Part shown: one piece after another, positions 8,322-53,633 of the stretch
Numbering within the stretch: the stretch's first letter is position 1
Layout: each line of letters starts with the position of its first letter
NCBI GenBank assembly: GCA_951406725.2
Contig: OX597824.1
Span: forward strand, 78,182,001-78,246,000
DNA from: Octopus vulgaris
Taxonomy: Eukaryota
Direction: 5' to 3'
DNA: 64,000 nt
The notes under the pieces: model-generated
Databases searched by the model: none
Told to the model about the DNA's origin: nothing
The model's input: the letters and a program-made list of their open reading frames with translations, nothing else
Program-made: the position numbers and the translations under genes

Positions 8322-8390
8322 TACCTGAAGATTGACTGTAACCATAACTCGAATTATTACGAATTGGACAGCCATGAAACGATCGTAGTG
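8322..8390 (+). ncRNA. type-I hammerhead ribozyme motif, canonical core
   Basis: TAC-CTGAAGA-[TTGACTGT...ACAGCCAT]-GAAAC-GATC-GTA-GTG. Followed by an AT-rich tail (to about 8560) also present inverted at 27885-28230 and 38036-38400. Confidence 0.7.
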
Positions 8391-10950
8391 TTTTACTCAT
8401 TATCTTTTATTAAATTTTTAATACTTTTGATATATATTTAAAATAATATAAATTAATTAATTTTATGTATTGGCTTAAGTTTTTCATTGTTTGATTTGCC
8501 TAATAGTGGTTTAATCTCTAATTTAATATAATATTGGTTTAATCTCTAATATTAATATAATATTATATATATATATATATATATACATTCTTACATAAAG
8601 AAGAATGGGTCTAATAAATCCGAAAATATGTATCAAAGCAATTAGAGAGACATACAGGATTACTAAGGGTGAGAGAGAGAGAGAGAAAAGGGGAGTGGGA
8701 GAGAGAGAAGGAGAGGGAGAGAGTGATGTAGTGCGGATGGCAAGGACTAAAACGTTTGATGCCGTTAGTTTTTCAGATGTAGTAAAAAACGACACGGACA
8801 TGCTGGCCAAAAATATTAATCGATAAAATACGATGCAAAAAGATTTGGAAAGCAGGAAAAAAATAAATACACATGAAGCACATGGGATAAATAAATCAAG
8901 AATTCGAGCAATTCAAATCGAGAACAATAATTTGAAAACTTGAAGGGTCTTTAGTAAAAGTCATGAGCATAAACTATATGATGAATTAGAAAAAGCCAAG
9001 TAAATGTTATATAAAAGTCGTATATAGATTGTATAAAGATCAAATGTAACAGTCAAAAGGGAACAAAAGATCGAAGAGAGAACAACAATACATCCAACAT
9101 AATCCAAATTATATTCATGTTAAATGTAACAAATTCTTGGTACACTGAGAGGGCTATGACGTCATCCGTTCGTTGAATAATATCTGTTGCGTATACATGT
9201 TTTTTTTAGTGGGCAATGCTTTGTGGGTGAATTTGGTAGGGAAAACTGAATACATATATAAAGTGAGGATGGCGTAGCTTAGTGATTAGGGTTGCAATAA
9301 AGGTCTCGCAGGGCATACGCCGTCCTGTGCATCTGTGCAGGCTAGGTTGAATTGATGGAGGGAGTGACCTGATGTAGGGCACAAACATTTGATCACTAAT
9401 AAACAGATCATCTGTGTGGCTTGCCCTGCAAGAAGTTGCGAGACCCTCACCAGTCATCCACGAAACAAGTGTTCACTATATAGACACACATAAGTAAATA
9501 ACTGAATATACATATATATATATATGTATATATATATAATGTATGTGCGTATGTATATATACTGAGAAAAAGAGAAAATGATATATATATATATATATAT
9601 ATATATATATATATTAAAAACGTACTTGGAATAGGATACGTGGCGTTCGATCATATAATTATATAAATAATAAATAAATATATAAATACATGCATATATA
9701 CATACATATATGTACATACCTACATATAAATGTATATATATGCATATATGGGTACAGGACATAAAAAAAACCCTTAATCACTATGAGAAACGAAAACATA
9801 AAAACGGAAACATAGAAAACGAACTTTTTTCGAACAACGAAAAAAAACAAACATATATATATGCGTGTGCGTGTGTGTATCTGTGTTTGAGTTGTGTTTG
9901 TTGCTGAAAACTGCTTGTCAGTTGGATTGGTTTGTTCAACTTAGCAGTTCAACAAAACAGAACCGATAGGATAAGTACGAGACTTAAAAGGAAAAGTTCT
10001 GGGGTTGATTTGTTCGACAAAATGCCTCAGTGCAGTGCTCCAGCATAGCAGCCGTCCACTGACTGAAGCAAGCAAAAGATAGAGATAAATATCAATAATT
10101 CAGATTTTCAGTAAAAAAGGTCCGACTCTACTCAAAACACGAAAAATATTTCTCAAAGATAATGAGCATCTAATGAAATGACAGTAGGAGCCATCTCTAT
10201 ATAGGCTTCATTATTTTATTACTGATCAGCTGTTTTTGAAAGGAACTATAACAGATTCTTTCAGTAACCACATGTATTCGGAGAGACTTGTTGAGGACTT
10301 GTGTTTTTAATATTTTCAGAAATTCTTATCCAGATAAAATCTCGTTATAAATTTGTTTAAAACACTGATGTAATCTTGGATTGTACGACTGTCATCAAAT
10401 TTGGTCTTTGGCTCCATACTAGTTGTGGGCAAACTTTTTCGAAGTGAGGCTGATTCATCTACTAAAAATTATCACGTTTTATTTTTGTTACCATGCCATT
10501 CCAAAAATCGAAGTGCTTCAAGTTGCCATGATTGTTCTATACGCTACTCCTTTGGGCAAGTAATTCCAAATTATGTCAATATGTGTGTATGGGACATATA
10601 GGTGCAGGTGTGACTGTGTGGTAAGAAATTTGCTTCCCAACCCTATGGTTCTTTGTTCAGTTCCACTGCTTGTCATCTTGATCAAGTGCCTTCTACTATA
10701 GCCTCGGGTCACCCCAAACCATGTGAGTAGATTTGGTCGACTGAAAGATGGTCGTCATATATATATATATATATATATATCATTTATTCTTGATAGAATT
10801 CAGGATAAAATAACCTTAGGTCAGTTGAAATATGTCACATATTTCAACTGCTAAGGGCAAATACACTACAGTTAACGTAGAGAAAATTTCTCCCTTATCG
10901 TAAAAAGATGTGAAAATACCCCGTTCGTTCAGTGTCGGTGTCTTTCGAGA

Positions 10951-10997
10951 ATCTGAGACATTTATGTTTCGACTTTGCTAACTCTTGTCGATCAGAT
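10951..10997 (-). ncRNA. minimal hammerhead motif, U3-A8 core variant
   Basis: ATCTGA-TCGACAA-GAGTT agc AAAGTC-GAAAC-ATAAAT-GTC-TCAGAT; perfect 6-bp stem I. Confidence 0.6.
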
Positions 10998-12474
10998 GTG
11001 CTTGAGAGGAACAACCTTGAACGAACTGACAACTCTTATAGCTTTATATATAATTCTGCCACACACAAACACACATATATATTCTTTTCTTTTTTCTTTT
11101 TACTTATCCCAGTCAGTTGACGTGGATATACATAAATATATATATATATATATATATATATATATATATATATATATATATATATATATATATATCTGTT
11201 AGTATGTGTACAGGCGCGTTTGTGCGTGCGTCTATGTCTGTGTTTCTGTATACGTATGTATGTGAGTAGACGTATGTGTGTGTGATAATTTTTATGTCTA
11301 TATAAACATTTATAAATGTGTAAAAGTCTGTATCCTTATATCATATCTTTGTTCTTTGCTTATGTCATTAAATTTATTTTATGCTTAGTTTTAGTTCTAT
11401 CAATATATTTATTTTATAATTTTTATATTTTCATAGTTATTTTATTTTCTATATTCAAATTTATATTAAGAGGAATGTAAGCACAGGCGTGTGCATCTAT
11501 GAATGTACATAATTGAATGTACACAATTGTACACTTGTATGTGCATATAAATATATATATATATATATATATATATGTATATATATATATGTATATATAT
11601 ATATATGTATGTATATATATATGTATGTATATATGTATATGTATACATATATAGATAGATAGATATATATCTATACATATATAGATAGATAGATATATAT
11701 CTATACATATACATACATATAAACACACACACACATATATATAGATTTGTATATATATATATATATATATATTTTCGTTTTTCTTGTTTCAGCTCAGAGC
11801 TGTACATAATATGTGTATATATCCATATATATGTTTATGTGTATAATAAGTGTGTGTATATATGTATTTATATTACACATTTCACACAGACAGCCTGTTA
11901 ACATACCTCCTCTCTGACTTACTTATTTATTCATACTCTAGTAAAATGAGATATATAGCCATGTAACCGGTTATATCGTGGGTATCTTTCTTATCAAATA
12001 TCCCATGCTGGTGTGTCATCATCCACATGTAGTTTATTCTTACGTCATATGTATACAGACTTATATATCACATACATACACACGCACACACAGACACACA
12101 GTTACATACATGGACACACATAGACACATACATTATTATGAATAAACCAAGTGTAAATAAACATAAAATTTGAACGTTCAAATTCTTCATTCTCCTTATT
12201 ATCAATATTGTACTTTACATTCAAAGTAGCCTGGAATAAACTGTAACATCAGATGGGAGTTAAAGGACCATATAACGCAAAATCTGAAGGGACCAGTGTT
12301 TGCACTTTACATAGAGAAATTCGTTATCTGTCTGAATATTATATACCTACTCTTACAATATATATATACATACACATATATATATATATACATACTCATA
12401 TATATATATATATATATATATATATATATATATATATATATATATATATATATATATATATATATATATATATA

Positions 12475-12720
12475 TATAAGAAATTAAAGAAGGAAAATAC
12501 GCACACTTACATGGTTTCAATATGATTTTTAATATATCGACCGGTTTCACTCGTAAATTTCATCACACACAACATGGACCAAATTTCCTCTTAAGAAAAA
12601 TATATATTCATATAAATTAAACATTATATCATGAATAGCGATAGCGAAACCGGTCGATATATTCAAAATTATATTAAAACCATGTAAGTGTGCGTATTTT
12701 CTTTTTTTAATTTCTTATAT
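12475..12720. mobile_element. PLE-type fold-back element in (TA)n carrying hammerhead motifs
   Basis: About 70-bp inverted arms ending in TATATCGACCGGTTTC and GAAACCGGTCGATATA. Confidence 0.8.
12625..12661 (+). ncRNA. minimal hammerhead ribozyme, A3-U8 core variant
   Basis: TATATC-ATGAATA-GC gata GC-GAAAC-CG-GTC-GATATA; perfect stem I and palindromic stem III (ACCGGT). Confidence 0.72.
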
Positions 12721-12874
12721 ACATTACAACCCACCACGTGGGGACAACCGAAATTCGTCTTTTCTGTTACTACTACTAAATATATATATATATATATACA
12801 CATATGTATATATACATACATACATACACACACATATATATATATATATATATATATATATATATATATATATA

Positions 12875-52272: not shown

Positions 52273-52445
52273 ATAATAAGGGTTTATTGCAACAAGTTGC
52301 TTAAACCACATACCGAAAATATTAGAAATAGCAGCCAAAAGACTACTTTTTCCTTTTACTACAAGGAAATGTTAGTCTTTTGGCTGCTATTTCTAATATT
52401 TTCGGTATGTGGTTTAAGCAACTTGTTGCAAAAATCCCTTATTAT
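52273..52445. repeat. near-perfect fold-back in (TA)n
   Basis: TGCAACAAGTTGCTTAAACCACATACCGAAAATATTAGAAATAGCAGCCAAAAGACTA and its exact inverse. Confidence 0.9.
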
Positions 52446-52769
52446 TATAATTATATAAATTTTTACCGAATATGGTCCTTTTCCATACCGAAATACTACT
52501 AGGTGAAATTTGTTGATTTTACTAAATTAATTATATTTCCCCCTATATCTGTAATGACTATATATATATATACTCTTTTACTCTTATTCTTGGACAGACA
52601 AAGGGATTAAGTCGATTACATCGACCACAGTGCGTAACTGGTACTTAATATATCGCCCCCGATAAATCTATCGCCCTATGATCAAATATATATATATATA
52701 CATATATATGATCATAGGTCTGTTAGTCAGCGGTAAACGACCTGGGGTTAGAAAACAATAAGAAAAATA

Positions 52770-53193
52770 TGCGCAGGTGTGGCTGTATAATAAGTAGCTT
52801 GCTTACTAACCACATCGTTCCGGGTTCAGTCCCACTGTGTGGCACCTTGGGCAAGTATCTTCTACTATAGCTTCGGGGCGACCAAAGCCTTGTGAGTGGA
52901 TTTGGTAGACGGAAACTGGAAGAAGCCTGTCGTATATATGTATATATGTTTGTGTGTGTGTGTGTGTGTGTGTGTGTTTATGTGTGTGTGTGTGTGTGAG
53001 TGTGTGTGTATGTTTGTGTGTCTGTGTTTGTCCCCCAACATCGCTTGACAACCTATGCTGGTGTGTTTACGCCCCGGTAACATAGCGGTTCGGCAAAAGA
53101 GAACGTTAGAATAAGTACTAGCCTTACAAAGAATAAATCCTGGGGTCGATTTGTTCGACTAAAGGCGGTGCTCCATCATGGCCGCAGTCAAAT
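52770..53193 (+). mobile_element. SINE family B
   Basis: Near full-length match to the other family B copies. Confidence 0.9.
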
Positions 53194-53230
53194 GTGCATT
53201 ATCGTCTTGGAAGATGGCACTACCATCAGG

Positions 53231-53633
53231 AAAATGAACTACTAAAGCGTGTCAAGCGACTAAAAATCTTAAAAGAATTTTTAAAATATATCAATCTACT
53301 AAAAAAATTTTTTTTTTATATGTCAAGAAAGTCTGTGAACGACTAATTGTCGAGATTCATGTTCATCCTGATAAGGGAGTCATTGCCGAGATGCACTTTA
53401 ACTCGTAATCGCACAGCGGCAGTGATCCCCCGAAATGGCCATTGATGCGTTTTTACTTGATTTTATGGAGTTCGCTTACGCTCCTTGGACTTCAACCTAC
53501 CATTGTTTTTATGAAACAAATCATTTTGCCATATTTTTAATTGAGGGGAGTAAAAACTTTTTTTAGTCGATTGATATATTTTTTATTTATTTTTATATTT
53601 TTAGTCGCATGACACGCTTTCGTAATTCATTTT
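53231..53633. mobile_element. fold-back element enclosing a hammerhead at 53364-53447
   Basis: Arms AAAATGAA.TAC.AAAGCGTGTCA.GCGACTAAAAAT. HHR: CATC-CTGATAA-GGGAGTCATTGCCG...CGGCAGTGATCCCCC-GAAAT-GGCC-ATT-GATG. Confidence 0.8.

Follow-up and report, generated by a model that had tools for sequence, protein, structure and literature searches.

The 64,000-nt stretch of Octopus vulgaris DNA analysed here (hereafter the window; G000:C11:78182001-78246000 of a 2.8-Gb assembly) is AT-rich, with many microsatellites and repeats, and it contains both a series of motifs shaped like minimal type I hammerhead ribozymes and the decayed remnant of a Penelope-like element (PLE). A preliminary description of the window had counted about 20 such motifs (some decayed) and proposed that the tertiary pair between core nucleotides 3 and 8, C3-G8 in the standard hammerhead, occurs here in all four Watson-Crick combinations. 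We located 16, many of them indeed damaged: seven with C3-G8 (nt 3 at 8325, 18475, 22953(-), 27255(-), 31377, 45845(-) and 47321), three with U3-A8 (10991(-), 46808(-) and 49687(-)), three with A3-U8 (12631, 38494(-) and 39536), two with G3-C8 (34487(-) and 34521) and one with a C3.A8 mismatch (53368). All ten cores cited previously are present in the sequence; the plus-strand positions given for them were exact, whereas the minus-strand ones denote the low end of the core 7-mer (nt 3 of these lies at 10991, 45845, 46808 and 49687).

The only undamaged A3-U8 motif of the window occupies 12625..12661 (+), with a 6-bp stem I, a 2-bp stem II, a CCGG palindrome and a predicted cut after C17 at 12655; its family is located in the 3' untranslated region (UTR) of PLEs. 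The other two are associated with the PLE remnant itself, a 5'-truncated open reading frame (ORF) at 38616..39460 (-) (5' limit set by eye) that retains the thumb of a reverse transcriptase (RT), a Cys linker and the start of a GIY-YIG domain. One (38463..38498, (-)) lies in the 3' UTR of this remnant and has a 3-nt duplication in the core as well as G12A; the other (39532..39564, (+)), also with G12A in this copy, lies within an inverted 5'-truncated repeat of the same remnant, the two together forming the usual truncated-and-inverted PLE layout. The G3-C8 motif at 34513..34565 (+) (nt 3 at 34521, U17 at 34557) has an extra G before a 5-bp stem II and an ATAT palindrome; it carries A6U, the family core being GTGAACA, and stands head to head with an inverted partner copy (34448..34490, (-)) that has A6U and damaged stems. 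Among the U3-A8 motifs, the one at 46772..46812 (-) is intact, contains a CTGCAG palindrome and belongs to a young family. The one at 49647..49694 (-) shares with its family a U.U mismatch that opens stem II (U10.1.U11.1 at the stem base in 24 of the 25 copies listed, U.C in one), and the one at 10951..10997 (-) has C4, the majority state of its family.

Searches confined to the window gave a weak signal. A descriptor with positions 3 and 8 free had 2 matches with an intact core, compared with 0.83 in shuffled sequence, and 17 versus 10.0 when one core mismatch was allowed (12 shuffles in each case); stricter descriptors returned 1-2 matches. No Rfam family matched the window at gathering scores, so that none of the 16 motifs was recovered, and no hammerhead appeared among the matches listed (150 of 292) at E values up to 5. 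A direct-repeat scan was dominated by microsatellites. Since the enrichment within the window is weak, variants and decay are inseparable from the window by itself, and family data are needed.

For the window copies, the 3-8 states were tallied in homolog sets biased to the best BLAST matches. A3 and U8 were constant among homologs of 12631 (71/71 each) and nearly so among those of 39536 (17/18 and 16/18); for 34521, G3 was present in 95 and C8 in 98 of 101 homologs. U3 and A8 were found in 33/34 and 32/34 homologs of 46808, and in every homolog of 49687 (31/31) and 10991 (29/29). Of the C3-G8 examples, 8325 and 18475 were compared with a single C-G homolog each; the set contained no homolog of 31377. 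In genome-wide patterns the stems were fixed and the core was left free, and the first 100 rows of each search were tallied. The G3-C8 family had 5,103 exact matches versus 0 in the control, with G3 in 98, C8 in 96, U16.1-U17 in 99 and the full GTGANCA in 90 of the rows read by eye. The A3-U8 group had 704 matches versus 0 (A3 in 98 rows, U8 in 97) and one U3-A8 family 1,870 versus 0 (U3 in 99, A8 in 97, U3.G8 in 3/100). The variant cores are family states, not decay of single copies, and the core claim of the preliminary description, that the non-C3-G8 variants are real, is borne out by both approaches. The remainder of the hammerhead core (N3-U4-G5-A6-N7-N8-A9, G12-A13-A14-A15.1, U16.1-H17) is also found at the family level, the exceptions being C4 families and one A13C family.

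Several further sequence states and patterns were recorded. C4 is the majority state in several families (19/29, 13/18 and 2/2), one of them with U3-A8; examples are 10951-10997 (-), 47317-47364, 22911-22957 (-) and the loci L190 and L232. The U3.G8 wobble forms a small subfamily inside the U3-A8 family (L141, L142), a possible stepping stone between C-G and U-A. Two related U3-A8 families (L125 and L126) are distinguished by a single base where cleavage would occur; that of L126 has either G17 or an extra A before helix III. G3-C8/U17 and A3-U8/C17 would agree with a rule by which nt 17 is kept from pairing with nt 3, but a U3-A8/A17 family breaks it. Two genome patterns were rejected, one as an overcount (3,653 matches, with 9/32 sites being a C-U repeat without stems) and a looser one as too unspecific (54,280 matches versus 40,654 in the control). 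A metagenome scan with the A3-U8 pattern gave three matches, none with a convincing stem I.

The link to PLEs drawn in the preliminary description could be followed from the remnant at 38616..39460. Its frame 38616-39083 (-), which has no Pfam match, is 64% identical to a 635-aa RT and GIY-YIG frame (L129) and, as a query, returned at least 150 scored loci; all four long frames tested combine RVT_1 with a C-terminal GIY-YIG. Of the 30 top protein-selected loci, 16 have an A3-U8 motif in the sense orientation downstream of the endonuclease region, ~270-320 nt beyond the stop codon of PLE frames, and at another locus (L123) a U3-A8 motif flanks a 781-aa frame on both sides. The A3-U8 and some of the U3-A8 motifs belong to PLEs, residing in the 3' UTR or terminal repeat of elements with an RT and GIY-YIG ORF. 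Oriented loci of the 10991, 46808 and 49687 families (23, 23 and 25, respectively) showed no such ORF within 1.5 kb. The linker between RT and endonuclease reads C-X4-C-X2-C, in agreement with the CX2-5CxxC of Neptune elements, and suggests an affiliation with Neptune or with Nematis, which also has a Cys linker of the Neptune type (PMC8557442). An RT tree of 33 rows was built with no named references (two of 35 rows were left out for length), and the motif labels are void for three rows: L180 (a chimera), L039 (whose motif belongs to an adjacent insertion) and the window row (3-nt duplication). No linked motif in this tree is C3-G8; several lineages have U3-A8, and A3-U8 is confined to two groups that join at an unresolved fork. 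U3-A8 is also the state of a hammerhead-like motif in a young PLE family (L337-L349) with many intact 784-aa frames, placed ~830-1000 nt past the protein match.

The pairing at 3-8 also holds when families are compared with each other. Clustering of 246 matches with a palindromic helix III, drawn from 1.9 Mb, yielded 15 families present at two or more loci, and in 13 of these the majority state at 3-8 is a Watson-Crick pair (against 5.6 on average in permutations; p = 7e-5, a value that overstates independence given that the families are related and were partly fetched by target). The paired families comprise 7 U-A, 4 C-G, 1 G-C and 1 A-U, while the remaining two are split 1:1 with C-G on one side; the control pair 3-7 is Watson-Crick in 4 of the 15. 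An untargeted sample of 60 evenly spaced stretches (594 kb) was clearly enriched, unlike the window alone, when subjected to the shuffled control that the preliminary description had recommended: 41 descriptor matches versus 13-20 in shuffles, and 21 matches with a palindromic helix III versus a shuffled mean of 2.0. Of these 21, 18 pair at 3-8 (9 C-G, 8 U-A with three from one locus, 1 G-C and no A-U), compared with 28% over 122 shuffles. A search for CUGANGA would miss about half of the intact motifs (9/18 non-C3-G8; small numbers); the earlier estimate of about a third is if anything low, and the C4 families add to it.

Changes within families were examined for the two purine-3 groups. Stem I of the A3-U8 group reads ATC/GAT in 76, GTC/GAC in 23 and a mismatch in one of 100 rows, and four of its six pairs are changed on both sides in 10 hand-chosen copies. 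In contigs of four runs with four organism labels, A>G at 12626 is accompanied by T>C at 12660, and neither A3 nor U8 has a variant at 10%; across the group N7 varies while A3 and U8 are constant. Among 93 copies of the G3-C8 family, shared variants occupy 6/9 loop II columns, 0/11 core columns and 15/93 flank columns, the conservation of the core being not clearly above that of the flanks. Both shared changes in its stems preserve wobble pairs.

The G3-C8 element consists of a 3' part of ~200-250 nt that contains the motif. An inverted partial copy lies upstream in 70/94 copies, 36/94 have an optional 3' tail and 46/94 end at (TA)n; the tail is ~60 nt, versus 30-40 nt quoted for PLEs (PMC8557442). 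Three copies reach 690-780 nt further 5' via microsatellite-rich DNA. The family displays the features expected of PLE ends, namely 5' truncation, an inverted partial copy, an optional 3' tail and microsatellite targets. Its motif also has one additional nucleotide following A9, together with G10.1-C11.1 and a palindromic helix III, all of which are listed features of PLE hammerheads (PMC4209133). These features, and a descriptor score (30, in L180) that 72.5 Mb of shuffled sequence reached a single time, make a fit by chance unlikely. The family is likely a Penelope-dependent element. One locus (L180:2875-5815) was considered as its PLE partner and rejected, since the frame ends 44 residues early and 12 of 13 other ORF copies have no motif within 1.5 kb. 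It is chimeric: an inverted PLE 3' end is followed by a truncated PLE frame and then, where the native 3' UTR would be, by a G3-C8 element. The junction, seen at one locus, may reflect template switching, in which case the element would be tied to that RT, or else an insertion accompanied by a deletion. At L348 a G3-C8 motif is found only beyond a (TA)n tract.

All four 3-8 pairs are reportedly cleavage-competent in some ribozymes, according to Przybilski and Hammann in 2007. The chemistry as such is unsurprising, laboratory swaps being known to be tolerated. The descriptors of the Hammann group may have allowed any 3-8 pair, and earlier natural cases may exist there. The closest described relatives are the minimal hammerheads of metazoan PLEs (Cervera and de la Pena 2014, PMC4209133), which, like ours, are of type I, have the core and GAAA, carry a palindromic or tiny helix III suited to dimers, and occur in terminal repeats, in many families per genome and in opposite-strand pairs. 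The same work contains a U3-A8 variant (Schistosoma Cercyon, ~1,300 matches). The supplementary alignment shows C-G, U-A and one U.G, while A3-U8 and G3-C8 appear in neither the text nor the supplement portions covered; in the octopus, unlike in that survey, U3-A8 and C3-G8 are about equally common. Perreault et al. 2011 (PMC3088659) similarly described U3-A8 covariation, a 2-bp stem II, a U10.1-U11.1 mismatch and U4C, but the section covered reports the change from C3-G8 to U3-A8 alone and no purine-3/pyrimidine-8 pairs. Natural U3-A8 was thus already published (PMC3088659, PMC4209133), a precedent missing from the preliminary description, whose four-pair set is nonetheless family-fixed in this genome. 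We found no natural A3-U8 or G3-C8 in the literature searched (which also included PMC6765202, PMC6155905 and PMC6962438), several key hammerhead papers lying outside it; the only cases that turned up were laboratory ones (PMC3884650, PMC11167929, PMC8495972). For example, a C3G/G8C swap in the Anolis PLE hammerhead gave a partial rescue of cleavage, which there requires the PLE protein (Frangieh et al. 2024, PMC11167929), whereas G3-C8 here characterizes a whole family, with no fewer than 5,103 copies in the genome. The non-LTR (LTR, long terminal repeat) retrozymes (PMC7229834; bioRxiv 10.64898/2026.07.22.740005) are likewise short non-coding type I hammerhead repeats, kin to PLE terminal repeats. 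They form head-to-tail tandems, whereas the copies here are mostly dispersed, 5'-truncated and head to head, and no tandem array lies over the window motifs among the matches listed (150 of 168).

In our view the octopus motifs are probably type I minimal hammerheads fixed in dispersed repeats, with C-G, U-A, A-U or G-C at 3-8, that work like the PLE minimal hammerheads. Tandem or partial-tandem insertion would lead to transcription across two terminal repeats, and the palindromic helix III of the two motifs would pair to form a double hammerhead. In each core the 3-8 pair, whatever its bases, would position the 2'-OH of nt 8 as the general acid. Cleavage would then follow nt 17, perhaps with the help of a protein as in the Anolis element, and would free the element's RNA from a longer transcript. 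Master lineages that retained a Watson-Crick pair would continue to amplify, and the neutral decay of individual genomic copies would be what the window, with its mostly damaged motifs, displays. Predicted folding is in line with the dimeric form for the A3-U8 motif: the 12631 monomer is predicted to misfold (stem I probability 0.04), and the lowest-energy predicted dimer is exactly the double hammerhead. All family exemplars have a palindromic helix III. Modelled in this way, the motifs are likely self-cleaving as dimers, slowly or with the help of a protein, and selection likely acts on catalysis, as far as can be judged from the pattern of compensated pairs.

On the other hand, a number of observations weigh against this picture. 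For G3-C8 the predicted helix III self-duplex is worth merely -0.2 kcal/mol, G3.U17 is predicted to be paired at 0.66, and the best predicted dimer is not a double hammerhead; the same is true of the best dimer of 46808, a copy that is also predicted to misfold. The A3-U8 and G3-C8 states each represent one family group, the G3-C8 stems were preset by the pattern used to pick many of the copies, its core is no better conserved than noted above, and its sole apparent ORF link is the chimeric locus. The young L337-L349 family carries GCAA (A13C) in 12 of 13 copies and the U3.G8 subfamily has been amplified (3/100 rows), so that an optimal core is not always required. Finally, hammerhead mutants did not impair PLE insertion in vitro (PMC11167929). 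The argument of the preliminary description from compensatory swaps to selection on catalysis is upheld insofar as the pairs match across families, and weakened by the relatedness of these families and the amplification of the A13C one; the flanking families are not unrelated, as it had assumed, and the pairs are not independent events.

Among the alternatives, one holds that the variant cores are C3-G8 hammerheads that decayed copy by copy, at random or through CpG mutation. The damage in most copies of the window, the CpG formed by C7-G8 in some cores and the weak enrichment in the window would all fit. However, none of the 300 rows listed over the three core-free searches has a C3-G8 core, while the family majorities are 89-100% variant at each of positions 3 and 8; this explanation can be regarded as refuted, with next to no probability left to it.

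Another alternative retains the fold and dispenses with its activity: the motifs would be hammerhead-derived structures for which cleavage is dispensable, the 3-8 pair being kept for folding or protein binding, or by hitchhiking with master copies. It would readily accommodate the fixation of A13C in a young family with intact ORFs, the U3.G8 subfamily, the C4 families and the family with U.U in stem II, as well as the in vitro insertion result and the lack of reads ending at the cut site in the anole PLE (PMC11167929); moreover, Naiad PLEs thrive without canonical hammerheads (PMC8557442). However, it is in the active conformation that the 3-8 pair forms, minimal ground-state structures not having shown it (PMC3884650), hitchhiking fails to account for 13/15 families pairing at 3-8, and natural variants with C4 or with U10.1-U11.1 have been reported as compatible with activity (PMC3088659). 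We consider this explanation unlikely. A narrower version accepts A3-U8 and U3-A8 as real ribozymes and views G3-C8 as a palindromic non-autonomous repeat that matches the descriptor by chance or as a dead relic. The absence of an autonomous partner, the weak helix III with its predicted G3.U17 trap, the restriction to a single family and the invariance of N7 all point in this direction, but they have to be set against the rarity of its score in shuffled sequence, the PLE-hammerhead details of its motif and its PLE-like ends, which make this version improbable as well. The strongest form of the selected-hammerhead reading would have active, selected ribozymes with all four Watson-Crick 3-8 pairs in one genome, including the first natural A3-U8 and G3-C8 families (hundreds to thousands of exact copies), a whole PLE clade that has given up C3-G8, and evolutionary proof of a selected active fold in PLEs; we advance it tentatively, its chances being a little short of even.

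Hammerhead cleavage may or may not matter to PLEs, as it was dispensable in vitro (PMC11167929). If it is under selection, evolution would be expected to leave compensatory swaps across whole families at a pair that is specific to the active fold, as observed here. The natural variants supply constructs for direct cleavage tests, and the A13C family (L337-L349) offers a natural test of the need for cleavage. Ribozyme censuses in such genomes can fall short by about half. Some PLE clades have been reported to lack a hammerhead after searches that included the literal string cuganga (PMC8557442); if the four-pair reading is true, such reports, along with animal hammerhead counts, would be biased by CUGANGA descriptors.

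The remaining motifs of the window are mostly of the C3-G8 type. Those at 8319..8393 (+) (one homolog compared) and 31372..31437 (+) have a long stem II, the latter being decayed with GACA in place of GAAA; the motif at 18472..18509 (+) is likewise decayed (GGAA). The one at 45811..45848 (-), with poor stems, is the weakest of those cited previously, and the one at 27215..27259 (-) has a weak stem I. C4 and a CAGCTG palindrome characterize the motif at 47317..47364 (+), which has a sister copy at 22911-22957 (-). The C3.A8 mismatch motif (53364..53447, (+)), read by eye and considered as a single copy, has a long stem II and a TGGCCA palindrome. A common downstream motif of the type GATGA..CTCCC follows 18475, 45845 (-) and 46808 (-) and hints at related families with different 3-8 pairs.

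Other repeats of the window include a 308-aa frame at 28511-29437 (+) that matches zf-RVT weakly (E 2e-4) and is likely the C-terminal portion of a non-LTR retrotransposon, and a 153-aa frame at 54097-54558 (-) with a weak DDE_3 match, a remnant of a Tc1/mariner-type transposase. A near-perfect 140-nt hairpin at 3901-4041 scores 80 bits with the MIR841 model, below the cut-off, and is likely what remains of a palindromic transposon. A 184-bp repeat, which we take to be similar to short interspersed elements, forms two-copy tandems in opposite orientations at 16059-16423 and 41369-41729.

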